Source: Arachnia propionica
Lineage (GTDB): Bacteria > Actinomycetota > Actinomycetes > Propionibacteriales > Propionibacteriaceae
Length of the DNA: 64,000 bases
Assembly: GCF_003859805.1 (NCBI RefSeq)
Contig: NZ_RQZG01000007.1
Coordinates: 88,312 to 152,311 of the forward strand
Direction of reading: 5' to 3'
Numbering within the stretch: position 1 is the first letter of the stretch; each line of letters opens with the position of its first letter. Position numbers and translations under genes: made by a program. Positions 11,544 through 28,550 of the stretch are shown here, one piece after another. The notes beneath the pieces were generated by a model. That model had not been told where the DNA came from, did not search any database, and saw nothing but the letters and a program-made list of their open reading frames with translations.

Positions 11544-12806
11544 TCACTGCCGCGCACGTCGGAACTCATCGAGCTGGCACAGTCGCTCAACGACCCATTG
11601 AGGCCGCGCCTGTCGTCGGCGACTCCGGTACTCCAGTCCCGACAACCTCCTGGCCCGACCGCTCCGATCGACCACGACGATCTGGTACAGGTAGCCAACG
11701 TTCCCGTGGTGCTCCGAGCCCCAGTTGGACTCATTCGACCGATCACTCGTCCCGCTGCGCATCACGCCGAAACCCCGTACCTGGTTCCACGGCAGCGACC
11801 ATCGATGCAGCGGGCTCATCATGTGGATCCCCTCGGTGGCGACGAGGGTCTTGGCGAACAAGCTGTTCAGCACATACACCAGCAAGGGGATCAGGGCCGC
11901 GGGTATGGTCCAGGAAATGACCCGGAAGAACACGCCGGAGGATGTGCTGAACGAGCGCCACAGGCTGTGGCTGCCAAAGGCCATGAAAGCGATGCAGACC
12001 AGGACCGCCAGCTTGGCCAGGACGGACTGACGGAAGACCATCTCGCCACCGGAGCACCTGAACTGTGGCTTCCTGCCCTGCTCCTGCACGATCCCGCTGA
12101 CGTCCAGCGGCTGTCCCACCCCCGGGTCGATGCCGAGAGCCGCACCGTCGGGCAGCACCGCAACGTAGCGTCCCGGGCCCATCGGGGCGAACCGGTGCCC
12201 GAGGTCGTCAACCCCGACCCCATGCCTCGGCCAGTCCCGTCCGGTCTGCACCAGGGTGCTCTCGACGGCCATGAAGGATGTCCCTCGGGCCGCAGCGATC
12301 CGTTGCCCGATCACCGCTGCCGCCTGCTGTGCCTGATCCTCTGACGCGTCGAGCGGCAGGATCAGTCCCAGCATGGCTACCTGCTTCGACTCGTTGTCCA
12401 CCGCATCGATGACGATCCCGAGATCGGCCTGCCAGCACAGTTCACCCCCTTCCTGGAAGGCAACGTAATCGCCACGCCTCCAGAACAGACGCCCGATGGC
12501 CGGTACCACGAGCACGAGCAGGCAGATGACGGAGACGATGCCAAGGAGCAACATCCCGAACAGCAGCGACACCCCCGTGTCGAAGTACGCATTCCCCTTC
12601 GGTCCCGAGTTGTTCGGAAGGTCCCGCAGCATCAGGTGCAGCGCGACCGCTCCCGAAAGGGACAGCAGGAACAGGACCGCCGACACCACGACGGTGGTTC
12701 GGGAGCGTCTCCGTCTGCCCACGTGCCGCTTGAAGAAGCCGGGATCACGCAGTTGGGTGAGCAGGTGGTCCGCGTTCGGGTCCATGGCCCCATTCTTCAC
12801 ACCCAT
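11544..12806 (-). CDS. Polytopic membrane protein with bacterial PH-like C-terminal domain; paralogue of 9681..10901
   Basis: See the paralogue. The C-terminus has ...WSLPWNQVRGFGV...; same architecture, ~35-40% identity by eye. Confidence 0.6.
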   Translation of the reverse strand: MGVKNGAMDPNADHLLTQLRDPGFFKRHVGRRRRSRTTVVVSAVLFLLSLSGAVALHLMLRDLPNNSGPKGNAYFDTGVSLLFGMLLLGIVSVICLLVLVVPAIGRLFWRRGDYVAFQEGGELCWQADLGIVIDAVDNESKQVAMLGLILPLDASEDQAQQAAAVIGQRIAAARGTSFMAVESTLVQTGRDWPRHGVGVDDLGHRFAPMGPGRYVAVLPDGAALGIDPGVGQPLDVSGIVQEQGRKPQFRCSGGEMVFRQSVLAKLAVLVCIAFMAFGSHSLWRSFSTSSGVFFRVISWTIPAALIPLLVYVLNSLFAKTLVATEGIHMMSPLHRWSLPWNQVRGFGVMRSGTSDRSNESNWGSEHHGNVGYLYQIVVVDRSGRARRLSGLEYRSRRRQARPQWVVERLCQLDEFRRARQ

Positions 12807-12859
12807 GGGTTCACCCCTGTCGTGAAAAAAATGTCAGACCCACCTGCAACCCTTGGACC

Positions 12860-14062
12860 ATGAGCATCACTTCCCTGATCCTGGCCCTGGCAGCCCTCCT
12901 GGTGGGGGCGGCGCTGGGATACCTCGCTGCCCGCTCCGGCCTCCACTCCCGCGCGGTCAGGGCGGAGGCGGAACGCGACGCGGCCCTGCAGCGCGCCGTC
13001 GACATCGCGGAGGACCGCTCCCGGATGGCGCTGGAGTTCCGTTCGATGTCGGCGGATGCATTGGAGAAGCAGACCCGGCTGTCCGACGAGGCCACCGACC
13101 AGCGGCTGGCCCCGGTGAACGAGGCCCTCCGGTTGCTGCAACACCGACTGATGGAGGTGGAGCAGCAGCGCGCCAGCCTGTCGGCCGAACTGCGGACCCA
13201 GGTGGAGGGGGTGCGGCAGTCCTCCGAGGCGGTGCGCAAGGAGGCGCAGTCGTTGGCGACGGCGCTGCGGAATCCTCAGGTGCGGGGCACCTGGGGCGAG
13301 ACCTCACTCAAACGGATCGTGGAGATCTCCGGTCTGGTGGAGCACTGCCACTTCGAGACCCAGACCAGCTACACCACCGAGGACGGCCATCGGTTGCGCC
13401 CGGACATGCGGGTGGATCTCGCCGACGGGCGCGCGGTCTTCGTCGACTCCAAGGTGCCGTTGGCTGCGATCATCGAGGCCTGTCAGGCCGAGACGGAGGA
13501 GGAGCGCAGCGCCCAGCTGCGTCGTTTCTCACGCCACATCCGCACCCACATCGATCAGCTCTCAGGCAAGGAGTACTGGGCCCTGGATGCCGGTAGCCCG
13601 GAATTCGTCGTGCTGTTCCTCGGCAGCGACGAGTTCTACCGGCTGGCCCTCGATCAGGAACCCGGGCTCCACGAGTACGCGGCTGCACGTCGGATCACGC
13701 TGGCCGGGCCGGGGCTGCTCATCCCGTTGCTGCGGACCATCTCCCACGGCTGGCGGCAGTCACGTCTGGCGGAGTCCGCGGCCCAGGTCAGTGCGCTGGG
13801 ACGGGAGTTGCACTCCCGGCTGTCGACTCTGGGAGCCCACTTCGACAAGCTCGGCAGTTCTCTCGGCACGGCGGTACGCAGTTACAACGCAGCCGTGGGT
13901 GCCCTGGAGTCACGGGTGCTGGTGACGGCTCGTCGTCTCGAGGCACTGCAGGTGGCCACCGATGAGTTGCCACAGCCCCGCGCCGTGGAGGAGGGGGTGA
14001 GGCAACCGGTCGCCGCCGAGCTGGTGGGTGAGGCGGCAACCGAGCACAATGGGACACCGTGA
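12860..14062 (+). CDS. rmuC: DNA recombination protein RmuC
   Basis: N-terminal TM helix, long coiled coil, the RGTWGETSLKRIVE block and a C-terminal nuclease-like region, all typical of RmuC. Confidence 0.85.
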   Translation: MSITSLILALAALLVGAALGYLAARSGLHSRAVRAEAERDAALQRAVDIAEDRSRMALEFRSMSADALEKQTRLSDEATDQRLAPVNEALRLLQHRLMEVEQQRASLSAELRTQVEGVRQSSEAVRKEAQSLATALRNPQVRGTWGETSLKRIVEISGLVEHCHFETQTSYTTEDGHRLRPDMRVDLADGRAVFVDSKVPLAAIIEACQAETEEERSAQLRRFSRHIRTHIDQLSGKEYWALDAGSPEFVVLFLGSDEFYRLALDQEPGLHEYAAARRITLAGPGLLIPLLRTISHGWRQSRLAESAAQVSALGRELHSRLSTLGAHFDKLGSSLGTAVRSYNAAVGALESRVLVTARRLEALQVATDELPQPRAVEEGVRQPVAAELVGEAATEHNGTP

Positions 14063-15327
14063 CCACACTGCCCGAACTCGCCGCCCTGGTCCCCGACGCC
14101 CGTCTGAGGCTGACCGGGGTCGCACGCCAGACCCCCGTGGAGATCAACCTGCGCCTGACGGAGGCCACCGGCTCCGAGATCTGGGTCAAGCGGGAGGACC
14201 TGCAGCCGGTGCGTTCCTACAAGCTGCGCGGGGCCTACAACCTCATGGCGCAGCTGAGCGACGAGGCTCACGCGGCCGGGGTGGTGTGCGCCTCGGCGGG
14301 CAACCACGGGCAAGGGGTGGCGTTCGCCGCGGCAGCTCTGGGGATGACGGCCACCGTCGTGGTGCCGACCACGACACCTCGGCAGAAGCGGCAGCGCATC
14401 CAGGCACTGGGCCGGGGCCATGCGGAGCTGCTGCTGGAGGGTTCCACCTACGATCAGGCCTCGGAGGCGGCGGCTCGGCTGGCTGCCGAGCGCGGCAGCA
14501 CCGTCGTGCCGGCCTTCAACGACCCCCGGACGGCCGCCGGTCAGGCCACGGCCATCGCCGAGGCCATCGAGCAGCTGGGGTTCGTCCCGGATGTGGTGGT
14601 CCTGCCGGTGGGTGGCGGTGGTCTCCTGGCCGGAGCCGCATCCTGGCTCAGGACCCACCATCCGGAGGTGCGGATCGTCGGGGTGGAGCCCGACGGCGCC
14701 CCCTGCGTGGCAGCTGCGATCTCGGCGGGGCGCCCGTTCGCCCTGACCACCATCGACACCTTCGTCGACGGTGCCGCGGTCAGCCGGGTGGGCGACTTCA
14801 CCTTCGAGATCATCCGTCAGGCGGATGTCGAACTGACCCGGGTACCGGAGGGCCAGGTGTGCTCCGAGATGCTGGCGATGTACCAGAGTGACGGCATCAT
14901 CGCCGAACCCGCCGGGGCCCTGGCGGCCTCCTGCCTGCCGACCGGCGGGGTCGGTCCGAGGATCCACCTCCCCCACGGCTCGAAGGTGCTCAGCATCGTC
15001 TCCGGTGGCAACAACGACGTCTCCCGCTACGCGGAGGTGGTGGAGCGTTCCCTGGTGCACGAGGGCCGCAAGCACTACTTCCTGGTGGAGTTCCCGCAGG
15101 AGCCGGGGGCACTGCGTCGGTTCCTCGACGACGTGCTCGGCCCCGAGGACGACATCACCTACTTCGAGTACGTGAAACGCTCCAGCCGTGAGGTGGGCCC
15201 GGCCCTGGTGGGGGTGGAGCTGAGCAACCCGGGCGACTACCGCTTCCTCATGGATCGCATCGCCGAGTGCGGCATGCAGGTCTCCGAGGTCGACTCCACC
15301 AGCCCGTACTTCCGCTTCCTGGTCTGA
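14059..15327 (+). CDS. ilvA: Threonine ammonia-lyase (threonine dehydratase), short biosynthetic form with one C-terminal regulatory domain
   Basis: PLP-fold motifs: SYKLRGAYN (Lys) and GVVCASAGNHGQGVAFAA. It has a C-terminal ACT-like domain; 422 aa. It overlaps the rmuC stop by 4 nt. Confidence 0.9.
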   Translation: MTTLPELAALVPDARLRLTGVARQTPVEINLRLTEATGSEIWVKREDLQPVRSYKLRGAYNLMAQLSDEAHAAGVVCASAGNHGQGVAFAAAALGMTATVVVPTTTPRQKRQRIQALGRGHAELLLEGSTYDQASEAAARLAAERGSTVVPAFNDPRTAAGQATAIAEAIEQLGFVPDVVVLPVGGGGLLAGAASWLRTHHPEVRIVGVEPDGAPCVAAAISAGRPFALTTIDTFVDGAAVSRVGDFTFEIIRQADVELTRVPEGQVCSEMLAMYQSDGIIAEPAGALAASCLPTGGVGPRIHLPHGSKVLSIVSGGNNDVSRYAEVVERSLVHEGRKHYFLVEFPQEPGALRRFLDDVLGPEDDITYFEYVKRSSREVGPALVGVELSNPGDYRFLMDRIAECGMQVSEVDSTSPYFRFLV

Positions 15328-15734
15328 CAGGATCACGAGCCGCGGCGCGCCCCGCCCTGCGCCACGAGGTCGAGCACCCGCACGTCGCCCTTGGGAAGGA
15401 CCGATCATGGCGTACACGAACCGCCGCTCTGCTTCCCTGAGCCCGCCGATGACAACGCTGCCATGGAAGCAGGACGGCGGTTCGCGACCCTGGCAGTTTC
15501 GCCTGTCTCGTCCTGGCGTCAGCCACCCTGACCCACGAGGCCCGTTCCAGCAACAGCGGAGCAACCTACCCAGATCCGCTGTTACCGCCTGCCAGAACAC
15601 GCCTCCGCTTCTTCTCCGTTGGCCGAACCAGAGCGTGAGCACCAGCGAGCCATCCGAGACCAGACCTCTGCCCACGCTGCAGGACCTCGACTTGAGGGGG
15701 AATCCCACGGTGTCTCGGCACGGGCCTCCGCAAG

Positions 15735-16697
15735 CTACGTCAGGTCGTGCTTCTTGATGGCGCGGCGCAGTTCGGGTGGCAGCGCGAAGGTGAGGTTCTC
15801 CTCCGTCAGGCGCTCCTCCTCCGCCTTCGGGAAGCCCCGTTCCTCCAGGTGGTCGAGCACCCCCTGGACCAGTTCATCGGGCACCGAGGCACCGGAGGTG
15901 ACACCGACGGTCTCCACCCCGTCGAGCCACTCGGGCCGGATCTCTGAGGCGTAGTCGATGCGCTCGGAGCGCTTCGCCCCGGCCTCGAGCGCGACCTCCA
16001 CGAGCCGCACCGAGTTCGACGAGTTGCGCGAACCCACCACGATCATGAGATCCACCTTCGGCGCGATCTGCTTGACCGCCAGCTGCCGGTTCTGGGTGGC
16101 GTAGCAGATGTCGTCCGACGGCGGGTCCTGCAACAACGGGAACCGGGTCCGCAGCCGGGAGACGGTCTCCATGGTCTCGTCGACGCTCAGCGTGGTCTGC
16201 GACAGCCACACCAGGGGCTTGTCGGTGGGCATGTCGAGGTGGTCCACGTCGTCGGGATGCTCCACCAGGGTGGTCCGCTCCGGGGCCTCCCCCATCGTGC
16301 CCTCGACCTCCTCGTGTCCCGCGTGACCGATGAGCAGGATGTCGGTGTCCTGGCTGGCGAACCGCTTGGCCTCCCGGTGCACCTTGGTCACCAGCGGGCA
16401 GGTGGCATCGATGGTGCGCAGCTCCCGCCGGGCGGCCTCCTCGTGCACCGCCGGAGAGACCCCGTGGGCGGAGAAGACCACCAGGGCATCGGTGGGCACC
16501 TCGTCGAGCTCGTCGACGAAGATCGCCCCGCGCTGCTCCAGCGTCGAGACCACGTGCTTGTTGTGCACGATCTGCTTGCGCACGTACACGGGCGGGCCGT
16601 AGGTCTCCAGCGCCTTCTCGACGGTGACGACGGCGCGGTCGACCCCCGCGCAGTAGCCCCGGGGGGCCGCGACGATGACCCGCTTGGTGTTGCTCAT
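15735..16697 (-). CDS. ispH: 4-hydroxy-3-methylbut-2-enyl diphosphate reductase
   Basis: [19 protein letters not shown] is the N-terminal Cys ligand region, followed by further conserved IspH/LytB blocks. Start set at MSNTKR (16697). Confidence 0.9.
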
Positions 16698-16738
16698 GCG
16701 TGACAGTGTACGAGAGGTGACGAACCTGACCGCGTCGC

Positions 16739-17728
16739 TCAGCCGTCGTGACGGCGCATGAAGTCCAGCGCGGCGGCCCCGACCTCGTCGGGCTGCTCCA
16801 TGGGCAGCGAATGCGATGCGCCCGGCCACACCGTCGCCTCACCCACGGGAAGCAGGTCCGCACGGGCCGCTGCGACCACCGGGTCGGTCAGCACGGCGCT
16901 GTCCCCGGCCAGCGACACGTGGAGGGGCACCGGGTAGCCACGGAGCTGTTCGTCGCTGAACAGCTCGGGCAGGGACCGTGCGGAGGAGTACCCCTTGGTC
17001 CCGGCGTCGATGAGTTGAACCATCGTGTCATCGGGGTCGATGGGCCCTCCGCCGATCCGTTCTAGGGCCGCGTCCCGCCAGGACTGTGGCAGGAAGGGCA
17101 GCGCGGCGGGCAGGGCCTCGAACAGGACCTCCGGGCGCAACCCCGAGAGCACCTGCGCCGGGTCGAGAAGGGTCACCGACGCCACCCGCCCCGGCTCGTG
17201 ATACCCGAGGTTGGCAGCCAGCCAGCCACCGAACGAGTGCCCGACGACGTGGGCCCGGGACACACCGATCCCGTCGAGGGTCTGGCTGATCCACCGGGCC
17301 TGGTCCTGGCTCGAGACGATGGGAACGCTCTGATGACTCAGCCCCGCATCGCCCAGGGCGTCGAGGGCGTAGACGGGGCGATCGGCGGCGAGGACGGGCA
17401 GCAGTTCCCGCCACATGGGGATACCGGAGCCCCAGCCCGGGAGCAGCAGGATGGGAGTGGGGTCGCCGGTTCGGGGCCCGGGGAAGCGGACGATGTGGAC
17501 CATTCCCCAGTCGGTCGGCACATCCCAGGTCCGGTCCACCGGGGGCAGTTCAGCCATCAGTTTCTCGTAGGCGGCGACGTAGGCGTCGCGGCTGGAACGG
17601 CTGCGCCACCGTCCGATCTGCGGTCCGCGCGGCCACAGCAGCACCACGTTCAACAGCACGGACAGCACCAGAACCGTGACCATCCAACGGCGGCGACGCC
17701 GCGACTTGGTTTCTCGCTCCACAGCCAT
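16739..17728 (-). CDS. Alpha/beta-fold hydrolase
   Basis: N-terminal TM anchor and a nucleophile elbow VVGHSFGGW. Start set at MAVERE... Confidence 0.75.
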
Positions 17729-17780: not shown

Positions 17781-18338
17781 ATGCCGAGAATCGTCGACAC
17801 TGACGCCCGTCGCGACGAGATCTGCCGGGCCGTCTGGGCAGTCATCGCCCGCAACGGCATCGAGGCCGTCACGCTGCGCGCGGTGGCCCGTGCCGCCGGA
17901 GTCTCCGTGGGACGGATCCAGCACTACTACCCCAGCCGCGAGGAGATGCTGCACGACAGCTGCCGTCGGATTCTCGACCTCGCCGCCACCGTCGCCGACG
18001 ACACCCGGGGCACCGTCGCCGCACGACTCAGCCGCTGCCTCCACGCCCAGATCCCCACCACCCCACAGTTCGCCACAGGGGTCACCGTGTGGCTGAGCTT
18101 CGTCGCCCAGGGAGCCAGCGACCCGGGGATCGCTGAGCTTGTCCGCCACGGCCACGAGGCAGGGGTGGCGACGATCGCCGACCTTCTGCGCGACCTCGGG
18201 GCACCTCACCCCGAGCAGACGGCCCTGCACCTCCAGGCCCTTACCGAGGGTTTGGCCCTCCGCGTCACCTCGGGCAGCCTCAGCCCCGACGCGGCCATCT
18301 CGGCCCTGGATGAGGCCCTGGCCGCACTCACCCGATGA
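17781..18338 (+). CDS. TetR-family transcriptional regulator (divergent from the hydrolase gene)
   Basis: N-terminal HTH ICRAVWAVIARNGIEAVTLRAVARAAGVSVGRIQHYY, which is a TetR_N signature. Confidence 0.8.
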   Translation: MPRIVDTDARRDEICRAVWAVIARNGIEAVTLRAVARAAGVSVGRIQHYYPSREEMLHDSCRRILDLAATVADDTRGTVAARLSRCLHAQIPTTPQFATGVTVWLSFVAQGASDPGIAELVRHGHEAGVATIADLLRDLGAPHPEQTALHLQALTEGLALRVTSGSLSPDAAISALDEALAALTR

Positions 18339-19092
18339 CTGCCGGGACCAGGATGGCCGCCAGAATGAGTGTCGTGACGATCTCCCACCTCCCCAGGGCC
18401 TTGGCCGTCACCGGTCGGCCACGCATCGCCCCGAGCCAGGGCACGAGCCAGGCCCTGAGCGTCGTCGCCGCGAAGAAGGCGACCAGCCACCAGCGTCCCA
18501 GTCCGACGTCCCAGACGGCGAACAGCACCGTGAACGCCAGGTGCCAGGCCACGGAGTAGACGATGAAGTCGACGCGCCCCCGCTCCCGGATGTTGGTCTT
18601 GACGTAGAACACGGTGCCGAAGAAGTAGCCGAAGCACACCAGCGCCACCCCGTACAGCGTCGGACTCACCACCAGCGGCAGCAGACAGGCCGCGGCGACG
18701 GTGACCAGATCGGACAGCAGCGAACGTTCGTCGCGTCGCCACGAGAACCACAGTCCCGCTGCCGTGAGCGGGCCGAAGACCAGCCCCCAGACCCACCACT
18801 GGGGCTGCAGCGCCAGCAGCACGATCCCCAGTGCTGCGGTGATGCCGCCGTAGGTGGCGACGGCGTTGCGGTAGCGCGGCTTGAAGCGCGACTTCAGCCA
18901 CAGCCCGGCTGCGAAGAAGGCGAAGTAGCCGAGCAGCCAGGTCGGCCCCAGCACCGCGACGGCGGGGTGGAACTCACTCGAACCACCGGCCCAGATCAGC
19001 GCCAAAACGTAGGGCAGGAGGACCATCGCCCACGCCCCGTGGTGATTCGGGACCCACCCCTGGGAGCGCCCCCGGCCCTGTGCTCGCACCAT
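18328..19092 (-). CDS. Integral membrane protein (YwiC-like family)
   Basis: ~8 predicted TM helices, Trp/Leu-rich, no soluble domain. Confidence 0.5.
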   Translation of the reverse strand: MVRAQGRGRSQGWVPNHHGAWAMVLLPYVLALIWAGGSSEFHPAVAVLGPTWLLGYFAFFAAGLWLKSRFKPRYRNAVATYGGITAALGIVLLALQPQWWVWGLVFGPLTAAGLWFSWRRDERSLLSDLVTVAAACLLPLVVSPTLYGVALVCFGYFFGTVFYVKTNIRERGRVDFIVYSVAWHLAFTVLFAVWDVGLGRWWLVAFFAATTLRAWLVPWLGAMRGRPVTAKALGRWEIVTTLILAAILVPAVIG

Positions 19093-19153
19093 GCCCCGAT
19101 ACTAGGGACCCTGCGGTGAGCGGGGGGTTGCGGGGCAGGTCGTCGCGAAAACG

Positions 19154-20851
19154 TCACCGGTGGATGGCCAGCAGGATGCGCCATCCCCCCTTGGAGTTGT
19201 CCGCCCACTTCAGCAGCGTGGCTCCGCCGTCCCGGGTGCGGATGGTGTCCATGATGCTCCAGGACCCGGAGCTGTAGGACTCCCCCTCCGGGGTGGGGAG
19301 CGGAATCGGGGGAGCCAAGGGTTCGCCATCGCTTCTGGTAAGGGTCAGCTCCTCAGTGCCGAACAGACCCGGAACCCATGCATTCTCGGCCAGTGGATCA
19401 TTGCCCACACCCTTGCTCGCCTCGGGGGGTTCCCACGCCTGTCCGCTCCACGAATCCAGCATCTGCCCTGACTCGGAGGAGACGTAAACCGTCGGGAATC
19501 CGGTGAACGAGCCCCCGATCTCCGGATCGCCAGCAGGGGCCTGCAGCGTCTCCTGGGTCTCGATGTTGGTCCATCGGTTCGTCCCATCCGAGGGGTCGTG
19601 GACCAGGGTCCATCCCCGATACAGCTTCACTTGCTGCTCCGGCGGGTTCTTGACTCCTCGGTCCAGCTGGGCGACGACCTTTGTCGGCTCCTGATCCGAG
19701 ACCACATCCATCGGCCTCACAATGCAGTCCCCACACCCCGGCACTGGATCGTCAGCCGCCGAGATGTCAGGCAGCACCACCAGCCGGGACGAGCTGTTGG
19801 TCCCGGGCAGGAATTCCTGAGACCTCTTGGCCTCCCACTTCTGCTCCCCGGTGTGGATGTCGTAGGCGATCCGATCCACCACCACAACATGATCGGTCAC
19901 CGACACCCTCTCCTTGTCACAGGAAAAAGGAAGAACGAAACGCACCTGACCGGTGAGCCCATCCAGCACCGTGAGCACCCCCTGTTTCCCACCACAGGTG
20001 GCGAAGACCACGGTGGTACCGTCAGGGGACAGCACCAGCCGATCATCCCACCCCTCTGCGAGGAGGTACCCAGCCAACGGAAAATAGGCCTTCCGGCGCT
20101 GGAGCTGGTACTGCCACAGTTGCTCCCCCGTCTCACCGTCAACCCCGACGACGGTGTCATCGTCACTCAGGATCGGACCCCGAGCCCCCGGAACAACCTG
20201 CGTCCCATCCATCAGCTCCAAGGAGGTGAAGGTCGCCACCAACTCCCCCTTCACCGTGTCGTTCGGAAGCCGCCCCGGCATCCTCGGCACCTCTGCAGAA
20301 GCCTCAGCCGTGATGGAGAGCACCGGCGACAGATCAGCCGTGACCTTCTGCACCCCGAACCCAGCACCCGCCACCGCCAGCATCACGCCAGCCGCCACGG
20401 GCAACACCACCACACGCCCCCGCAGCCGCTCCTTCTCCGCCACCGGAATCATCACGAACAGCAGAACAACTCCAGCCCCCACCAAACAGCTGAACCCCAT
20501 CGCAGCCGCCGGATCAGGCCCCGCCCAGGTCAACGCTGTGGTGACGATGCGCCACGCCTGCACCGTCGCCGCGATCATCAGCCCCAGCCCCACCACACAG
20601 GCCACCCGCATCACACGAGAACGCAGGAACACCAGCGCCACCACCAACACCGCGACCCCGGACCCGAACAACGCCCACAACAACGCCGACAACTGACTCG
20701 GCCCAGACACCTCAGGGAATGCAGCTGCAAGCAGGAACCACAGACCAGCAGCCCCCAATCCCAGGCACACACCCACCAGACACGACCGCACCCACCGCCA
20801 CACCGCGCTGGCCCCGTCCCTCACTGTCTGCTTCGTCTCCATGCGGCCCAT
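19154..20851 (-). CDS. Membrane-anchored protein with PQQ-like beta-propeller repeats
   Basis: Several N-terminal TM helices, then repeated ...DG..LW.. beta-propeller-like segments (GEQLWQYQL, GEQKWEAK). Confidence 0.55.
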   Translation of the reverse strand: MGRMETKQTVRDGASAVWRWVRSCLVGVCLGLGAAGLWFLLAAAFPEVSGPSQLSALLWALFGSGVAVLVVALVFLRSRVMRVACVVGLGLMIAATVQAWRIVTTALTWAGPDPAAAMGFSCLVGAGVVLLFVMIPVAEKERLRGRVVVLPVAAGVMLAVAGAGFGVQKVTADLSPVLSITAEASAEVPRMPGRLPNDTVKGELVATFTSLELMDGTQVVPGARGPILSDDDTVVGVDGETGEQLWQYQLQRRKAYFPLAGYLLAEGWDDRLVLSPDGTTVVFATCGGKQGVLTVLDGLTGQVRFVLPFSCDKERVSVTDHVVVVDRIAYDIHTGEQKWEAKRSQEFLPGTNSSSRLVVLPDISAADDPVPGCGDCIVRPMDVVSDQEPTKVVAQLDRGVKNPPEQQVKLYRGWTLVHDPSDGTNRWTNIETQETLQAPAGDPEIGGSFTGFPTVYVSSESGQMLDSWSGQAWEPPEASKGVGNDPLAENAWVPGLFGTEELTLTRSDGEPLAPPIPLPTPEGESYSSGSWSIMDTIRTRDGGATLLKWADNSKGGWRILLAIHR

Positions 20852-20884
20852 TCTGCTTCACACAAGGGGCACCCCGAGCGTGCA

Positions 20885-20995
20885 CCAACTGGCGGGTTGC
20901 TTGCGCGAGGTCGCGATGTCAACGCTGCCAACAAAGCAGAACGGCGATTCGTGCTCGAGGGGACGGCGCGGACCGGCGGGCGGTTCGATGAGCGA
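20885..20995. repeat. Interspersed ~100-nt intergenic element, copy A
   Basis: AACTGGCGGGTTGCTTGCGCGAGGTCGCGATGTCAACGCTGCCAACAAAGCAGAACGGCGATTCGTGCTCGAGGGGACGG...; compare copies B and C. Confidence 0.8.
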
Positions 20996-21026
20996 GCGGG
21001 CCGACGGGGACAGGGCGCGGGGGCGG

Positions 21027-21398
21027 TCAGTCGCCGCGACGGTTGTTCAGGGCCGCGGCGAAGTTCACCATCACGATCCCGACCCACGCCAGCGCGCCCG
21101 CGAAGAAACCGCCCGTCGAGAAGGCGATGGCGGTCAGCGGGATCGCCAGGGCCAAGGAGATGACCGCCAGTATCGTGCTCTGCGTCTTCTCGGCCTTTCG
21201 CTGACGTCCGGGAACCACACCGAACTGCTGCTCGTGGGCGCGGGTCAGCGGCCCGGTGGTCTGGCCCTGCTGCCTGCGGACCTCCGCCAGCACCTTCTCG
21301 GCGAACGAGTCCACCAGTGCCGGCTCCATCTCAGGGCCCAGATCCTGGCGGGCCTTCAGCACGGCTTCGAACTCGGACTTGTCCAGTGGCTCCGTCAT
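21027..21398 (-). CDS. Small membrane protein (hypothetical)
   Basis: 123 aa, with a soluble N-terminal half and two C-terminal TM helices. Confidence 0.5.
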   Translation of the reverse strand: MTEPLDKSEFEAVLKARQDLGPEMEPALVDSFAEKVLAEVRRQQGQTTGPLTRAHEQQFGVVPGRQRKAEKTQSTILAVISLALAIPLTAIAFSTGGFFAGALAWVGIVMVNFAAALNNRRGD

Positions 21399-21454
21399 GG
21401 GTCAAGTCTAGATCCGGGGTCCCAAGAGCCGCCTCGGGCCCCTTCCAACCCGTG

Positions 21455-21550
21455 CAGGAACCGCCGGTCTGCCTGCACGAGACGTCGATGTCAACGCTGC
21501 CAAACAAGCAGAACGGCGATTCGTGCTCGGATGGGACGGTGGGCGGTTTC
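21455..21550. repeat. Interspersed ~100-nt intergenic element, copy B (more diverged)
   Basis: ...GCCTGCACGAGACGTCGATGTCAACGCTGCCAAACAAGCAGAACGGCGATTCGTGCTCGGATGGGACGGTGGGCGG... Confidence 0.8.
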
Positions 21551-21641
21551 AGAACCTCAGAAACAGGTGGTGGCGTCGGAACGCCGGGGAACCGACGGTT
21601 CGTGCCCCCTGATCGTCGGGTCCTCGGGATAGGCTCAGGTC

Positions 21642-22853
21642 ATGGCGATGTCCAGTTCCCCCGAGAGTCCCCAGGCCCTGTCCCGGGTCGTGGGGGCCGT
21701 CGCCGACTGGGTCGGTCGGCTCGGTGAGATCTGGGTCAGCGCCCAGGTCATCGAGATCAAACGCCGCAGCTACGCCACCCAGTTCCTCACCCTGCGTGAC
21801 CGCACCGTCGACATCTCCTGCTCCGTCACCACGACGGCGTTCGTGCTGGACGCCGCCGGTCCGATCCCCGAGGGCTCCGAGGTGATCGCCCGGTTGAGGC
21901 CCAGGGTGTGGGAGCGCAGCGGTTCCCTCAACTTCGAGTGCCTGGAGCTGCAGGTCGCAGGCACGGGCCGTCTCCTGGCAGAGCTCGACCACCGTCGCCG
22001 CGCACTCCAGGCCGAGGGCCTGTTCGACCCGCACCGCAAACGCCCCGTGCCCTTCCTGCCCCGCCGCATCGGGCTCATCACCGGCAAGGGCTCCGACGCC
22101 GAACGCGACGTGCTGCGCAACACCCGCCGTCGCTGGCCCGCCGTCTTCGAGATCGAGCACACCCTCGTCCAGGGCCCGCAGGCCGCCACCCAGATCATCA
22201 CCTCCCTGCGGCACCTCGACGAGCACCCCGAGGTGGATGTCATCGTCATCGCCCGCGGCGGCGGCTCCCTGGAGGACCTGCTGCCGTTCTCCGACGAGGG
22301 CCTGGTCCGGGCCGTCGCCGCCTGCCGCACCCCGGTCGTCTCCGCGATCGGACACGAATCCGACGCCCCCTTGATCGACTTCGCCGCCGATCTGCGTGCC
22401 TCCACCCCCACCGATGCCGCAGCCAGGATCGTGCCGGAGCTCGACGCCGAGGAACAGTTCCTCACCCAGGCCCGGCAGCGGCTGCAGGGTGCCGTCGAGA
22501 CCTTCCTGCAGCGCTGCGAACAGGAGCTGGCCGGGCTGCGTGCCCGACCCGTGCTGGCCTCCCCGCTGGCGGCCCTGAGCGGACACACCGACCGCCTGGC
22601 GCTGCTCCGACTTCAGCTGCGTGCCGCCGTCGAGCGCCGTCTGGCCGCTGAGCAGAGCCAACTGGACGCCCACCTGCAGGTGGTGCGGGCGCTGTCCCCG
22701 CAGGCGACGCTGCAACGCGGCTACTCCCTGCTGACCGCCGGCACCACCCCCGTCACCGCCGCCACCGCCCGGGTGGGTGAGACGATCACCGCTCATCTCG
22801 CCGACGGCGAACTGGACCTGAAGGTCACCGCGACAAGGAGCACCGATGAGTGA
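21642..22853 (+). CDS. xseA: Exodeoxyribonuclease VII large subunit
   Basis: OB-fold N-terminus followed by catalytic-domain blocks (GLITGKGSDAERDV, VIVIARGGGSLEDL). 403 aa. Confidence 0.9.
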   Translation: MAMSSSPESPQALSRVVGAVADWVGRLGEIWVSAQVIEIKRRSYATQFLTLRDRTVDISCSVTTTAFVLDAAGPIPEGSEVIARLRPRVWERSGSLNFECLELQVAGTGRLLAELDHRRRALQAEGLFDPHRKRPVPFLPRRIGLITGKGSDAERDVLRNTRRRWPAVFEIEHTLVQGPQAATQIITSLRHLDEHPEVDVIVIARGGGSLEDLLPFSDEGLVRAVAACRTPVVSAIGHESDAPLIDFAADLRASTPTDAAARIVPELDAEEQFLTQARQRLQGAVETFLQRCEQELAGLRARPVLASPLAALSGHTDRLALLRLQLRAAVERRLAAEQSQLDAHLQVVRALSPQATLQRGYSLLTAGTTPVTAATARVGETITAHLADGELDLKVTATRSTDE

Positions 22854-23034
22854 TACCCCGAGCTACGAGACCGCCCGCGACGAACTGGCCACCACCGTCG
22901 CCACCCTCGAATCCGGCGGGATCAGCCTGGCCGAGACGATGGCACTGTGGAAGCGGGGCGAGGAGCTGGCCGCCATCTGCCAGGCCCACCTGGATGCCGC
23001 CCGGGCCGCCGTCGCCGAGAAGGAGGAGTCATGA
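22846..23034 (+). CDS. xseB: Exodeoxyribonuclease VII small subunit
   Basis: 62 aa, SYETARDELATTVATLESGGISLAETMALWKRGEEL. Its start overlaps the xseA stop (ATGAGTGA). Confidence 0.85.
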   Translation: MSDTPSYETARDELATTVATLESGGISLAETMALWKRGEELAAICQAHLDAARAAVAEKEES

Positions 23035-23210
23035 AACCGAAACGACCACGCCACGTGCGTGTCCTGTTGCTGATGCTGTGCATCCTCATCGGCTTCGTTG
23101 TCATCGACGCGGTCTTCCGCCCATCGATCGAGGCAATGCGCTGGGTGCTCGGTTGTGTCGTGGCCTACCTGATCGCGGATGCCTGCACCAAGCGGGACGA
23201 GCAGGACTGA
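23031..23210 (+). CDS. Small membrane protein (hypothetical), translationally coupled to xseB
   Basis: ATG overlaps the xseB TGA (ATGA). One TM helix (VLLLMLCILIGFVVIDAV). Confidence 0.4.
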   Translation: MKPKRPRHVRVLLLMLCILIGFVVIDAVFRPSIEAMRWVLGCVVAYLIADACTKRDEQD

Positions 23211-23222
23211 GGGCTTGTCCTC

Positions 23223-24023
23223 TCACTTCCCGAAGCGGCGCTCCCGCTGGGCGTAGCTGCGCAGCGCCCGCACGAAGTCGACCTTCCGGAAGTCCGGCCA
23301 CAGGGCCTCGCAGAAGTAGTACTCGCTGTGCGCGGACTGCCACAGCAGGAAACCGGACAGCCGCTGCTCCCCGGAGGTGCGGATGATGAGGTCCGGGTCC
23401 GGCTGGCCCGCGGTGTAGAGATGCTCGGAGATCTCGTCGATCTCCAGGCTGCCCGCGACCTCCTCCAGACTCCGTCCCTGCGCGGCACGCTCCGCCAGCA
23501 GCGACCGGAAGGCGTCCCGCAGTTCGTGCCTGCCCCCGTAGGAGACCGCGACGTTGATGTGCATGCCCGTCACGTCCCGGGTGCGCTCCGCCGAGGCCCG
23601 GAGGCTCTCGGCCCGCTGCGTCGGCAACAGGTCCAGGGCCCCGACCGCCTGCACCCGCCACCGGTTCGTCGCGGCCAGTGCCGCCACCAACTCGTCGATG
23701 ACGTCGAGCAACGGCTCCAGCTCATCGGAGGCGGAACGGGTCAGGTTGTCGGTGCTCAGCACCCACAACGTGATGACGGGGATACCGGCGTCGTCACACC
23801 AGTCGCAGAACTGCTGCAGCTTCGCCGCCCCGGCCCGATAGCCGGCGACGAGCGGCTGCCCGGGAGCGTTCAACCGCGCCCAGCGTCGGTTCCCATCCGC
23901 CAGCACGGCGACGTGCTGGGGCAGGCTCCGCGGGTCGAGCCGCTTCAGGACCCCGGACTCATACGTGGAGTAGAGCCACGCCGGGGGCCAGATGCGATCC
24001 AGGAGCCGCGATAGGGCAGACAT
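23223..24023 (-). CDS. uppS: Isoprenyl transferase, cis-prenyltransferase (UppS family)
   Basis: HVAVLADGNRRWA and the C-terminal RTSGEQRLSGFLLWQSAHSEYYF are hallmark UppS motifs. Confidence 0.9.
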   Translation of the reverse strand: MSALSRLLDRIWPPAWLYSTYESGVLKRLDPRSLPQHVAVLADGNRRWARLNAPGQPLVAGYRAGAAKLQQFCDWCDDAGIPVITLWVLSTDNLTRSASDELEPLLDVIDELVAALAATNRWRVQAVGALDLLPTQRAESLRASAERTRDVTGMHINVAVSYGGRHELRDAFRSLLAERAAQGRSLEEVAGSLEIDEISEHLYTAGQPDPDLIIRTSGEQRLSGFLLWQSAHSEYYFCEALWPDFRKVDFVRALRSYAQRERRFGK

Positions 24024-24082
24024 GGTCCAAGGGTATCGGGCGCGAACGCCCTTTGAGGACCGTGCGGGGTTCCGGGTCCGTC

Positions 24083-24195
24083 ACGAACTGGCGGGTTGCT
24101 TGCTCGGGACCGCGATGTCAACGCTGCCAGACAAGCAGAACGGCGATTCGTGCCCGGGAGAAGGACGTGCGGACTCGCGAGGACAGCGGGAGGAC
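24083..24195. repeat. Interspersed ~100-nt intergenic element, copy C
   Basis: AACTGGCGGGTTGCTTGCTCGGGACCGCGATGTCAACGCTGCCAGACAAGCAGAACGGCGATTCGTGCCCGGGAGAAGGACGTGCGGAC... Confidence 0.8.
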
Positions 24196-24240
24196 CCGAA
24201 CCCGCCTTAGCCTTACCCCAGGACCAAAGCGGGAGCACAG

Positions 24241-24544
24241 CATGAACCCATGGAAGGACATCTGGATCTGGATCGACGCACTGCCGCGCGGCAGGCGGAT
24301 CATCGTCACGGCCGCCGCCACGGTGACCCTCTGGTTTGCCGTCGTCCTGATGCTGCAGCTGAGGATCGACGCGTTCGACTGGATCCACATGACGCTGTTG
24401 TCGCTGGCGGTCGCCTTCGGCGCGGAGGAAGGACGCAGGATGCGCCGAGAGCTCACCCGGGGCAGGACTCACCCGGCCCCGGAAGAATCCCCAGCGTCAG
24501 ATATCGTGCCACCGCCCGCTCGACGCACGGATCGCGACGATTGA
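24241..24544 (+). CDS. Small membrane protein (hypothetical)
   Basis: ~100 aa with one or two TM helices. It overlaps convergently with the 3' end of the hydrolase gene, which lowers confidence. Confidence 0.35.
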
Positions 24545-26036
24545 GGGAGACGTGCCCGATGCCGTCGACGGTCAGCAGCTGTGCCGACTCCAGCCGCTCA
24601 CTCAACCGGGCCGAGTTCTCCAGCGGCGTCACCGGATCACCCGTACGACCGATGACGAGGATCGGAGGTGCCCCCTCACCCCGCAGCTGCAACGGTGGCT
24701 GCACCCACGCGGTCCAGAACTCGCACATCGGCTGGGTACCCAACGAGGCCGCGAACACCGGGGCCTCCGCACGCACCCCCACCAACTCCTCCAGGGCGGC
24801 CAGGAACCCCCGATCCGGCCGATCCGCACACACCACCGCCGGCAGGGCCGAGGCCGCCTGCAGCCACCCGTCGTCGTAGTCCGTGTTGAGGTCCGAGGCG
24901 AACAGCAGCCCGGCACCGTCCCCATCGATGGCCTGCATGATGTCCGTCGCCAACCCCGGGTAGTGGTGCTCACCCCAGTACAGACTCCCCGCCACTCCCC
25001 GCGCCGCCAGGCCCTGCGTGAGCGTGCGTGACCCGACGGACAACGGTGCCCGGTCGAGGCGCTGCAACAACCCGGAGATCCGCTCCACCACCTCGGCCCC
25101 ACTGTCACCCAGAGGACACGACGACTCGGTCCCGCACCAGTTCGCGAAGTGCCCGAGCGCCCGCTCCAGCCCTGCCAGGCTGACCAACGGCCGCTCACCC
25201 GTCACCTCGACCGCACCGTCGAGCACCATCCGCCCCACCCGCTCCGGGAACAGCTCCGCGTAGGTCGCCCCCAGCAGACTTCCGTAGGAGATCCCGAGAT
25301 AGGAGGTGCGTGGCACCTTGAACAGGTGACGCAACAGATCCAGGTCACGGGCCACCTCGACGGTGGAGACGTGCTCCAGCAGCACCCCGGACAGTTCCCG
25401 GCAGGACTCCGCCAGGCTCTGCCAGGCCTGACGCAGCATCACCCGCTCGGCCTCGTCATCCGGGCTCCCGTCCGCCTCGTAGGCCGCGGTCAGTGCCTCG
25501 GGCGCGCACCTGACCGCCGTCGACTCCCCCACCCCGCGCGGATCCCACCCCACCAGGTCGAACCCCGGCAGCAGATCCGGCTCCATGCCGCGGATCACCG
25601 GGCCCGCCGCGCCGCCGGGACCCCCGGGATTGAAGAACAACGGACCGAGGATCCCGGTCCTGGACCGCAACCGGGTCACCGAGATCTCCAGCGCCGCCAG
25701 CCCCGGGTTCTCCCAGTCCAACGGCACCAGCACCGTCGCACACTGGGCAGGCGCACAGTCCCGCCAGACCAGCTCCTGGTCCCAGTACGCCGCCAGGTCC
25801 TCCCCAGGCGCCACGGGCAGCCCGGAGACGTCATCACCGCGCACCACCGGACGATCCGGGCTGTCCACCCCCGGCAGCACGGGTGCCAGGTGCTCCGCCA
25901 CGGGCCGGGTCGGCACCCCCGGCTTCGCCGGCATCACCGGTGACGGTGATGGCGACGGCGTCACGGGCTCATCCGGTGTCGGGGCAGCGGTGCAGGCCGC
26001 CATCGTCACCGCGACGACGACGGCCACCAGCATCCC
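24453..26036 (-). CDS. Secreted alpha/beta hydrolase of the TAP (tripeptidyl aminopeptidase, S33) family; lipoprotein
   Basis: Lipobox-type signal (VAVTMAAC), nucleophile elbow GISYGS, and a C-terminal TAP-like region. Paralogue of the next gene. Confidence 0.75.
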   Translation of the reverse strand, partial: GMLVAVVVAVTMAACTAAPTPDEPVTPSPSPSPVMPAKPGVPTRPVAEHLAPVLPGVDSPDRPVVRGDDVSGLPVAPGEDLAAYWDQELVWRDCAPAQCATVLVPLDWENPGLAALEISVTRLRSRTGILGPLFFNPGGPGGAAGPVIRGMEPDLLPGFDLVGWDPRGVGESTAVRCAPEALTAAYEADGSPDDEAERVMLRQAWQSLAESCRELSGVLLEHVSTVEVARDLDLLRHLFKVPRTSYLGISYGSLLGATYAELFPERVGRMVLDGAVEVTGERPLVSLAGLERALGHFANWCGTESSCPLGDSGAEVVERISGLLQRLDRAPLSVGSRTLTQGLAARGVAGSLYWGEHHYPGLATDIMQAIDGDGAGLLFASDLNTDYDDGWLQAASALPAVVCADRPDRGFLAALEELVGVRAEAPVFAASLGTQPMCEFWTAWVQPPLQLRGEGAPPILVIGRTGDPVTPLENSARLSERLESAQLLTVDGIGHVSLNRRDPCVERAVARYLTLGILPGPGESCPG

Positions 26037-26052
26037 TCGGCCCCTCACCACC

Positions 26053-27720
26053 TCACGCCTTGCACGTGGTGCCCTCCGCCGGGATCGTACCCTCGAGGAG
26101 GTAGGCCGCGACGGCCTCGTCGACGCAGGCGTTGCCCGCCGTGACCGCCCCGTGCCCGGGACCGTCATAGGTCAGCAGGTTCCCCGACTCCAGCTGCTGC
26201 GCCATCGTCACCGCATGCTGGTACGGGGTGGCGGAGTCCCCGGTGGAACCCACCACGAGGATCGGGGCCGCCCCCGTACCCGTCAGCTTCAGGTGCGGGG
26301 CGGAGTCCGCCGTCCACAGCTCACAGGTGTAGTCCACACCCATGTTCGCCGCGAACAACGGTGACTTCGGCAGGAGCTCCTGCCACTGTTCCTGCAGCAC
26401 GGTGATGCCGAGATCCGCATCGTCGACGCACCGGGTCGCGGGGAACGCGTAGGCCACCGTCTCCCAGCCCTGCTGGCCACGCCCGTTGAGCAGGTCGGAG
26501 GCCTGCAGCAGCATCGCGCCGTCCCCCGCCCTCGCCTTCACGATGGCCTGCGTCAGCACCGGGTACTGCTCGGCGCCCGAGTACAGGAACAGCGCGATGC
26601 CGGTCGCCCCCATCGCCTGGGTGAGCGTGCGGTTCCCGACGGTGAGCGGGGTGGCGTCCAGTCCCTTGATGAACTCCGAGGTGCTGGCGACGATCTCGTC
26701 GGTGCTGCCGCCCAGCGCACAGTTGCCCTGCGCCACGCACCAGTCCGCGTAGTTGCGGAACGCCAGCTCGAACCCCTCCGACTGCGCGACGGCCTCGTCG
26801 TTGGTGATGTCCACCGCCGAGTCCAGCACCAGGCGCCCCGTGTTCTCGGGGAACAGCTCCGCGTAGACGGCACCGACGTAGGTGCCGTAGGAGACCCCGA
26901 CGTAGTTGAGCTTCTCCGCGCCCAGCAGGAAACGCACCAGGTCCAGGTCCCGGACGTTCTCGATGGTGGTCAGGTGGTCCAGCAGCTCCCCCGAGGCGTC
27001 CCGGCACTGCTGGGCGAACCCGGACCACGCCTCACGCAGCGCGACCTGCTCGGCCTCGTCGTCTGGTGTGGTGTCGGCGGTGAAGGCGGCATCGGTCTGC
27101 TCGGTGGTCCCGCACTGCACCCGCGTGGAGTCCCCGGTGCCGCGCGGATCCCAGGAGACGATGTCGTAGCCCTCCCACGACCCCTGCAGTTCCGAGCCCA
27201 GGGTCTGGGCGAACTCCTTGCCGCCGAACCCCGGCCCACCGGGGTTGACGAACAGCGGACCACGCGACGACTCCTTGGCCGGGATCCTGAGCAGGGAGAT
27301 CTCCAGCGCAGCCTTCCCCGGGTTCTCCCAGTCCAGCGGCACCTTCACCACCGCACACTGACCACCCTGGCAGTCGGTCCACTCCAGGGTCTGCTCCCAG
27401 TACGGCTGCAACGTGTCACCGAGTGCAGCGGGCAGGGTCACGCTCGGGGCACCCGCACCCTCGTAGGTGACCTGCCGATCCGGGTTCAACCCCGACGGGT
27501 CGTCCCACGTCTCGTGCTCCGCCACCGGCACGCTCGGCACGCCCGGCTGCTGGGTGCCGACGGCAGGGGGCGTCTGGACCGACGGTTCGGCCTCCCCCGG
27601 TGTCGGCGACGACTCGGGTTGCTGCCGTGGCAGCACCATGCCCCCGACGAAGAAGGACACCACCAACCCGATGGCGATGAGGATCAGCAGCCGCTGCACC
27701 CAGGAGACCCAGTCGCGCAT
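26053..27720 (-). CDS. Secreted/membrane-anchored alpha/beta hydrolase of the TAP (S33) family; tandem paralogue
   Basis: N-terminal TM anchor, GVSYGT elbow, and shared blocks (VPLDWENPG, LFxNPGGPG, ENVRDLDL). Confidence 0.75.
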   Translation of the reverse strand: MRDWVSWVQRLLILIAIGLVVSFFVGGMVLPRQQPESSPTPGEAEPSVQTPPAVGTQQPGVPSVPVAEHETWDDPSGLNPDRQVTYEGAGAPSVTLPAALGDTLQPYWEQTLEWTDCQGGQCAVVKVPLDWENPGKAALEISLLRIPAKESSRGPLFVNPGGPGFGGKEFAQTLGSELQGSWEGYDIVSWDPRGTGDSTRVQCGTTEQTDAAFTADTTPDDEAEQVALREAWSGFAQQCRDASGELLDHLTTIENVRDLDLVRFLLGAEKLNYVGVSYGTYVGAVYAELFPENTGRLVLDSAVDITNDEAVAQSEGFELAFRNYADWCVAQGNCALGGSTDEIVASTSEFIKGLDATPLTVGNRTLTQAMGATGIALFLYSGAEQYPVLTQAIVKARAGDGAMLLQASDLLNGRGQQGWETVAYAFPATRCVDDADLGITVLQEQWQELLPKSPLFAANMGVDYTCELWTADSAPHLKLTGTGAAPILVVGSTGDSATPYQHAVTMAQQLESGNLLTYDGPGHGAVTAGNACVDEAVAAYLLEGTIPAEGTTCKA

Positions 27721-28550
27721 CAACAATCCTTTCCGAGGGCCGGGTCGCGCTCCGCCCGCGCCGTGAAACCAGAACACACCGAGGTCAGTGGGCACCGTCC
27801 GACCCCGTCAGGGCCACGCACCGAGACCTCGTCGGTGGGAACATGATGCGCCACGACGGTGCCACCGGCCACCCGCTCCCCGATGGCAGGGGCCCGCTTG
27901 AGGAAGTCCACGTAGAGCGGATGCTCGTAGGCCAGGCAGCACATCAGCTTCCCGCAGGCCCCCTGGATCCGGAGCGGGTTCGCCGCCATGTGCTGACTGC
28001 GTGCCAACCTCATCGAGACCGGCTCCACCTCGTCGAGGAACAGGGTGCAGCACAGTTCCCGCCCGCACATGCCCACCCCACCGGTCAGCCGTGCCACGTC
28101 CCGGGAGGCCACCTGCCTGAGATCCACACGAGCACCCAGGGCCCGGGCCAGGTCACCCACCAGCGCCCGGAAGTCCACCCTGCCGGGAGCGGTGTAGTAG
28201 ACCACCGCCACCTTGTCGTGCCCACCACCGGCATCCACGCAGTCCGTGGCCACCACCTTCATCGGCAACCCGTGGGCGGTGATCCGTTCGACGGCGACCC
28301 GCTGGATCTCCGCCCGACGCTCCCGCCGGGCCTCGTCCCGACGCAGGTCGGCCTCGACGGCCCGCCCCACGCAGCGCGGCAACGGCGCATCGGTGCTCGC
28401 CACCTCCGGGGCCCACACCACACGCGCCACCTCCGGGCCGTCATCGGTGGGGTACAGCACCCAGTCCCCGACGGCGTAGTCATCGCCGCCGGGGTCGAGG
28501 TAGTGCAGCCGCCCGTGCTCCTCGAAGGTGACCGCCATGACTTTCGACAT
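27720..28550 (-). CDS. PSP1 domain protein (RicT/YaaT-like regulatory Fe-S protein)
   Basis: PSP1 C-terminal Cys-rich signature GMCGRELCC...GACGKLMCCLAYE. It is adjacent to holB/tmk, the conserved synteny. Confidence 0.8.
   Translation of the reverse strand: MSKVMAVTFEEHGRLHYLDPGGDDYAVGDWVLYPTDDGPEVARVVWAPEVASTDAPLPRCVGRAVEADLRRDEARRERRAEIQRVAVERITAHGLPMKVVATDCVDAGGGHDKVAVVYYTAPGRVDFRALVGDLARALGARVDLRQVASRDVARLTGGVGMCGRELCCTLFLDEVEPVSMRLARSQHMAANPLRIQGACGKLMCCLAYEHPLYVDFLKRAPAIGERVAGGTVVAHHVPTDEVSVRGPDGVGRCPLTSVCSGFTARAERDPALGKDC

Follow-up and report, generated by a model that had tools for sequence, protein, structure and literature searches.

Several classes of short intergenic repeat are known in bacteria. 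ERIC elements (IRU) and bacterial miniature inverted-repeat transposable elements (MITEs), such as the Correia elements of Neisseria, are imperfect palindromes of ~80-150 bp, bounded by terminal inverted repeats and built around a conserved core; they are present in tens of copies, are intergenic and non-coding, are often co-transcribed with their neighbours, and are usually flanked by a duplicated TA or another target-site duplication. MIRUs are actinobacterial intergenic repeats of 40-100 bp, arranged as direct tandem repeats inside operons and with short frames coupled to the flanking genes. REP/REPIN elements and BIMEs, which in Enterobacteria and Pseudomonas are mobilised by RAYT transposases of the HUH-Y1 type, are short extragenic units in which inverted arms enclose a spacer, so that a long hairpin can form in DNA that is single-stranded, or in RNA; the spacer is the least conserved part of a REPIN (definition and properties as in PMC3337134). 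Here, a repeat unit of 77 nt is described from a 64,000-nt stretch of the Arachnia propionica genome (assembly GCF_003859805.1, contig NZ_RQZG01000007.1, positions 88,312 to 152,311 of the forward strand; hereafter the window). The units are interpreted with good confidence as a non-coding palindromic interspersed repeat family of a narrow Arachnia clade, whose spread was most likely that of a non-autonomous mobile element. Searches of the literature turned up no account of a repeat of this kind from Arachnia or Propionibacteriaceae, and the family is apparently an undescribed one of a well-known element class.

The original prediction, made from the letters of the window, had reported three copies of a conserved intergenic element of ~100 nt. 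This element is real and non-random. Its 40-nt core, GATGTCAACGCTGCCA-NNN-AAGCAGAACGGCGATTCGTGC, has exactly three matches in the window, all on the + strand (20915-20954, 21487-21526 and 24114-24153), with 0 mismatches outside the 3 adjacent variable bases, compared with 0 matches in 100 shuffles, and a repeat search of the window returned an 86-nt family at 20883, 21455 and 24082 with 74-84% identity. The number and extent of the copies needed correction. A profile built from these three copies (A, B and C) found a fourth, D, and a profile from 18 family members found none beyond A-D in the 64 kb. From a comparison with orthologous loci and with 16 copies of a near-conspecific genome, A. propionica OH2822_COT-296, the unit emerges as 77 nt long; it is constant in length in an alignment of all copies and has sharp borders beyond which the flanks are unrelated between copies.

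The unit reads GGTCACGAAyCGCCGCTTTGCTTC, ~10 variable nt, CGATGTCAACGCTGCCA, 3 variable nt, GAAGCAGrACGGCGrTTCGTGACC. Its ends are 23-nt inverted arms (GTCACGAAyCGCCGCTTTGCTTC and GAAGCAGrACGGCGrTTCGTGAC), which pair in 82.6% of cells, compared with 33-48% in registers shifted by 1-3 columns, and the distance between arm anchors is fixed at 71-72 nt. The middle section of 29 nt between the arms holds a conserved quasi-palindromic centre, GCGaTGtCAaCGC. In 16 copies of subfamily 1 the 17-nt centre CGATGTCAACGCTGCCA is nearly invariant and more conserved than the arms; the 3 variable bases are the junction of the centre and the 3' arm, and the opposite junction is likewise variable. A minor subfamily 2 (3 copies) has a different centre, CGTTTGAAACGTT, which retains local dyad symmetry via a double change (41-43, GC to TA).

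Intact copies, including D, fold into a hairpin on both strands (z = -3.2 to -6.7), with the long hairpin of D at z = -5.6 and -6.7. The hairpin of B is significant on the minus strand only (z = -4.1), and those of A (z = +0.5 and +0.3) and C (z = -0.2 and +0.2) are not significant; A and C have lost their hairpin potential and have a degenerate 5' arm, GAACTGGCGGGTTGCTTGC. Of the window copies, D is intact and B half-intact, and A and C descend in decayed form from a single variant. Several details of the predicted architecture change with this anatomy. The 5' extension ascribed to A and C is indeed shared by them, but it is the 5' inverted arm, of which B has a different, more complementary variant. 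The CUGC-N7-GCAG hairpin with a variable loop does not hold: its stem is 93% paired but shows 0 compensatory changes, and its 3' half, GCAG, lies in the 23-nt 3' arm, which pairs with the 5' arm instead. The GGGACGG 3' tail is not homologous sequence but a G-rich flank that recurs beside most members on the same strand, the one that carries ATGTCAACGCTGCCA; the motif GGAYRG was counted 19 times on the top strand and 5 times on the bottom strand.

A scan with the degenerate core against one genome per species gave 13 exact matches, all in OH2822_COT-296 and across 11 scaffolds, and a profile search of the loci fetched from this genome added 3 divergent copies, giving at least 16. There was no core match in the other species representatives of that scan, and no family match in two JGI metagenome scans or, with blastn, in plasmids and phages. 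Relatives with 64% identity or less in a 123-aa protein encoded between copies A and B have no copy within 8-20 kb of surrounding sequence. Its distribution is thus limited to a narrow Arachnia clade within the Propionibacteriaceae. The further copies in the window and on the 11 scaffolds support the prediction of an autonomous multi-copy element. The copies do not derive from the 5' end of a duplicated gene.

All 20-odd copies are intergenic, and they occur in convergent (D and, at loci outside the window, L010 and L009_1259), divergent (B and its orthologues, L017_2532 and L009_4460) and tandem (A, L008, L011 twice and L017_5021) gene settings. About ten copies lie 40-115 nt past a stop codon, the orientation of the copies is mixed, and the nearest pair of units is 195 nt apart. 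The consistent position upstream of start codons that had been noted for A, B and C is not kept, D and many of its relatives being located behind stop codons or between convergent genes. The neighbours are functionally unrelated, and include dnaX, galK, an ABC exporter, an Abi-like gene (Abi_2), a subtilase, a Na+/H+ antiporter, rplO, ilvA, ispH, xseAB, uppS and the gene of a PQQ-propeller membrane protein.

REP/REPIN elements resemble the Arachnia unit in many respects. Both have paired inverted arms and dispersed extragenic copies in varied intergenic contexts, often behind stop codons; both form local pairs or clusters and mosaics with other short motifs, persist vertically at orthologous sites, and are without target-site duplications. 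For the Arachnia units, the best of 49 offset combinations gave matching 2-mers in 5/22 copies, 3-mers in 4/22 and 4-mers in 2/22. Unlike a REP, the Arachnia arm is not itself a stable small palindrome and has only a weak internal GAA..TTC symmetry, a GTAG/GTGG tetranucleotide is found at the 5' end in one subfamily only, and the host is an actinobacterium. ERIC elements and MITEs share with the unit its imperfectly palindromic form, terminal inverted repeats, conserved core, small size, intergenic position and absence of coding capacity. However, 77 nt is at the small end of their range, the unit lacks their target-site duplication, and neither the window nor the loci yielded a parent insertion sequence with ends like those of the unit: arm matches occur there only as the two ends of the 77-nt unit, apart from a few degenerate lone-arm remnants, and no larger open reading frame is flanked by them. 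The likening of the element to MIRU-type interspersed repeats was apt as far as "interspersed repeat" goes, and both are actinobacterial intergenic repeats with short open frames. MIRU itself does not fit, as the Arachnia unit is single and palindromic, does not recur in tandem at unit spacing, and lacks a conserved frame.

Orthologous loci were reached via homologues of the 123-aa protein (21027-21398), which has 100% identity to an NCBI A. propionica protein. L001/L002 have a copy at the B position, L004 has a copy at the B position and a decayed copy at the A position, and in L003, a locus from a metagenome-assembled genome, the A-position copy has its 3' arm deleted and the B position shows only a weak 3'-arm remnant. 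Orthologues of copy B are kept in L001/L002, L004 and L014. The site 3' of the 123-aa gene differs from locus to locus: it holds a subfamily-1 unit in the window, a unit with a deletion in L003, a decayed unit in L004, a subfamily-2 unit in L014, and nothing in L005. Copy C is found in the window only, the uppS upstream region being without a copy in L001/L002, L004, L005, L014 and L020. An empty-site alignment of this region with L002, L004 and L014 aligned only the ~25 nt before the ATG, the intergenic DNA being too diverged.

Identity to the related genomes varies along the window. OH2822_COT-296 is 98.2% identical over 12165-16716 (rmuC-ilvA-D-ispH) but only 80-84% identical over 18327-25906, with 75-85% for ywiC-xseAB-uppS, and L003 is 88-90% identical over 18341-23034. 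This mosaic suggests that the segment carrying A, B and C may have been recombined or imported. Within the same segment, the gene of the PQQ-propeller (BamB-like) membrane protein (19154-20851, -) has a third-position GC of 0.79, compared with ~0.9 in its neighbours. Only the window and L003 have this gene, and in the syntenic loci L001, L004, L005, L014 and L020 the 123-aa gene is directly followed by ywiC; from this pattern the PQQ-propeller gene looks like an insertion.

In the related genome, two other repeat families adjoin the 77-nt units (Table 1). The 13-mer TTCGCCTGYCTTG often occurs there directly beside a unit, in arrays with an exact 20-nt period that are followed by inverted copies, an arrangement that resembles iterons or a BIME-like mosaic. 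The second is a palindromic repeat family with the ends CTTAGAGGGYGCGCGGATAGG; at one of its loci, L013, inverted arms of 93 nt are present as well (2-94 and 481-573). In BIMEs, REPs likewise sit beside other short repeats. The identities of ilvA and ispH, between which D lies, were taken from synteny with L004, L005 and L020. Other repeated sequences of the window are two tandem paralogous genes for TAP-like alpha/beta hydrolases (24453-26168, -, and 26053-27795, -; repeat families D3 and D6), a 300-nt repeat pair 1.9 kb apart with 70% identity (10246-10545 and 12121-12420), and a coding repeat region rich in Gln and Pro (56508-56988).

Table 1. Coordinates of the 77-nt units in the window and of the repeats that accompany the family (window positions for copies A-D and the first 13-mer, locus positions otherwise; E, nhmmer E-value).
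Feature	Position	Strand	5' arm	Centre	3' arm	E	Context
Copy D	15412..15489	+	15413-15435	CCGATGACAACGCTGCCA	15466-15488	8.9e-19	Best preserved unit of the window; between convergent ilvA (14059-15327, +) and ispH (about 15735-16829, -)
Copy A	20880..20956	+	20881-20903 (degenerate variant GCACCAACTGGCGGGTTGCTTGC)	20914-20930	20933-20955	2.9e-21	Between stop of 123-aa gene (21027) and start of PQQ-propeller gene (20851)
Copy B	21452..21528	+	21453-21475	21486-21502	21505-21527	2.4e-22	Between divergent 123-aa gene (start 21398, -) and xseA (start 21642, +)
Copy C	24079..24155	+	24080-24102 (degenerate variant as in A)	24113-24129	24132-24154	5.6e-21	Between uppS (start 24023, -) and putative small membrane gene (24242-24544, +)
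13-mer TTCGCCTGTCTCG	15498..15510	+					Single window copy, directly 3' of copy D
13-mer site	L017 5106-5230						Related genome
13-mer site	L018 1205-1349						Related genome
13-mer site	L008 2121-2384						Related genome
13-mer site	L016 109-121						Related genome
Third family	L013 481-646						~166 nt, ends CTTAGAGGGYGCGCGGATAGGCG..., 112 nt between arms
Third family	L009 4560-4725						~166 nt, ends CTTAGAGGGYGCGCGGATAGGCG..., 112 nt between arms

The genes next to B and C appear to have promoters of their own. A TAnnnT box is located 6 nt before the ATG of xseA (TAGGCT, 21630-21635, +), of the 123-aa gene (TAGACT, 21405-21410, -) and of uppS (TACCCT, 24030-24035, -), and these boxes are kept in orthologues down to 56% protein identity, while the remaining intergenic DNA diverges. 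A TAnnnT box at such a spacing from the ATG is a hallmark of leaderless actinobacterial genes, and judging by the boxes xseA, uppS and the 123-aa gene look leaderless. Their start codons would then be the expected transcription start sites, so that B and C, which begin ~54 and 56 nt upstream of start codons, would lie upstream of the promoters and outside the 5' untranslated regions (UTRs). In the PQQ-propeller gene, a second ATG (20842), behind CAGAAT, may be the start. A scan found no sigma-70-like promoter or intrinsic terminator at any copy of the unit.

Other regulatory motifs that the units might contain were considered and rejected. Inspection showed that in no copy does the TTGACA on the minus strand of the centre have a TAnnnT at 16-19 nt downstream, and promoters of ECF type (GGAAC-N16-17-CGTT) and of RecA-NDp type (TGTCRGTG-N8-TAnnnT), also inspected by eye, fail on spacing or on the -10 box. 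The window arms GAACGGCGATTC or GGACGGCGGTTC are each 1 mismatch away from the LexA (Cheo/SOS) box GAAC-N4-GTTC. Exact LexA boxes number only 2 in the window, elsewhere than the units and not above chance, and the perfect boxes in 3 related copies are explained by the two R positions of the arm.

As a mobile repeat, the family would have been copied with the help of an enzyme acting in trans. Its hairpin architecture and lack of target-site duplications fit a REP/REPIN-like route, in which a single-stranded hairpin would be acted on by an HUH-Y1 transposase, better than that of a classical cut-and-paste MITE. The copies would afterwards have been inherited vertically, decaying at different rates. 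They may also affect their neighbours, by providing a 3'-end hairpin for transcripts that read into D or A. In L007 (79-157), a unit is found 80 nt downstream of rplO, the gene of ribosomal protein L15. The rplO region is normally part of a highly expressed ribosomal protein/secY operon; a strict terminator role of the hairpin is thus unlikely to be universal.

Several observations weigh against mobility of this kind. Pfam and NCBIfam scans found no Y1/RAYT-like or other transposase among 18 flanking proteins, and tblastn with RAYT and IS200 TnpA queries gave no match in ~190 kb of clade DNA. In REPIN-RAYT systems, the genome has a single-copy RAYT gene that the repeats flank. The copy number, at least 16, is low relative to classical REP/REPIN families, which have hundreds of copies, and the centre is more conserved than the arms, opposite to REPINs (PMC3337134). 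No clean pair of filled and empty sites was obtained, as intergenic DNA of the available relatives has diverged too far for alignment. Copy B is ~86% identical at its orthologous site (estimated by eye), compared with ~80% for the flanking coding DNA, and B and C are nearly equidistant from two leaderless start codons. The retention of B, with the same arms and centre across lineages, hints at a sequence-specific constraint, for example a protein-binding site, which would not be required of a purely selfish element.

Such a constraint would be expected if the units were binding sites of a host DNA-binding protein, either the transcription factor of a regulon or a nucleoid-associated or architectural protein, recognising the centre and/or the arms as double-stranded DNA; in the window, they would serve uppS, the 123-aa gene, the PQQ-propeller gene and xseA as operator or activator sites located upstream. 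The centre CGATGTCAACGCTGCCA, nearly invariant in subfamily 1 beyond the level of the arms, is consistent with this, as are its quasi-palindromic form, kept in subfamily 2 by the double change, the same orientation and similar distance at which B and C begin upstream of leaderless starts, the fact that four lineages keep B at the orthologous position, and the adjoining 13-mer arrays, the 20-nt period of which resembles that of protein-binding arrays. However, a promoter is unexpected at many copies, which are convergent or follow a stop codon (D, L010, L009_1259, L011, L017_5021, L016 and L007), and these promoter-less contexts argue against a regulon. In addition, the orientation to the nearest start codon is inconsistent, the neighbouring genes have no common function, and slightly more distant relatives lack the family but retain the same genes and -10 boxes. 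Host binding sites are an unlikely explanation of the family. A further proposal, under which the unit is more than selfish, is that it and the adjacent TTCGCCTGYCTTG arrays form a BIME-like mosaic, the invariant 17-nt centre of which is recognised by a dedicated protein of the clade, either a domesticated transposase or an architectural protein. This is speculative and, as it stands, improbable. If true, the mosaic would correspond, in an actinobacterium, to the REPIN-RAYT 'genomic symbiont', with recognition by a conserved loop instead of a conserved REP, and it would possibly influence the adjoining leaderless promoters.

A function as RNA, either as a structured cis-regulatory element (a 5' leader or riboswitch-like) or as a stand-alone small RNA with a loop-variable hairpin, is very improbable, even though the intact units fold far better than shuffles, arm pair 5-77 covaries (GC in 5 copies, UA in 5), and the strand-specific G-rich flank could indicate a strand-specific role. 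With Rfam, no match reached the gathering thresholds, and a permissive search of the region with A, B and C (20700-24400) gave no match that overlapped a copy and only chance-level matches elsewhere. The element is thus no known riboswitch; the original prediction, too, had not recognised it as one of the common classes. For the 23-pair helix, covariation does not exceed that of column shuffles, of which 48/500 reach the score and 415/500 the double-change count; at the one clearly polymorphic arm position (GAA[T/C]CG vs CG[A/G]TTC) all four combinations are present. The lack of compensatory changes in the CUGC/GCAG stem, the folding of A and C no better than shuffles, the lack of sigma-70-like promoters and intrinsic terminators at the copies, and the occurrence of every orientation relative to genes also argue against an RNA. 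A role of the units as 5'-UTR leaders of the minus-strand genes conflicts with the conserved TAnnnT boxes: the 123-aa gene and uppS, like xseA, appear leaderless, which would place the units outside their 5' UTRs. Still harder to credit is a mini-protein, MSTLPxKQ(N/D)G(D/G)S..., read from an ATG in the centre. The pseudo-ORF fragment noticed in the prediction does keep its ATG and frame in subfamily 1, one of its codons is made up of the 3 variable bases, and copies ending in GTGAC stop at that TGA after 12 codons (read from the sequences). But the stop is inconsistent, as in A, B and C the frame continues for differing lengths into unrelated sequence or an opposite-strand gene; the ATG is not preceded by a Shine-Dalgarno sequence, subfamily 2 lacks an ATG at this position, and conservation is at the nucleotide level, without a pattern of synonymous-site variation.

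With a mobile palindromic repeat as the preferred interpretation, these stretches should be masked in annotation as dispersed repeats and not listed as candidate riboswitches or small RNAs. The repeats are lineage-specific markers of a canine-oral Arachnia clade, in which they probably cause some of the assembly breaks. If they are REPIN-like, such elements would be extended to Propionibacteriaceae, and the conserved centre would be a handle for the partner protein.

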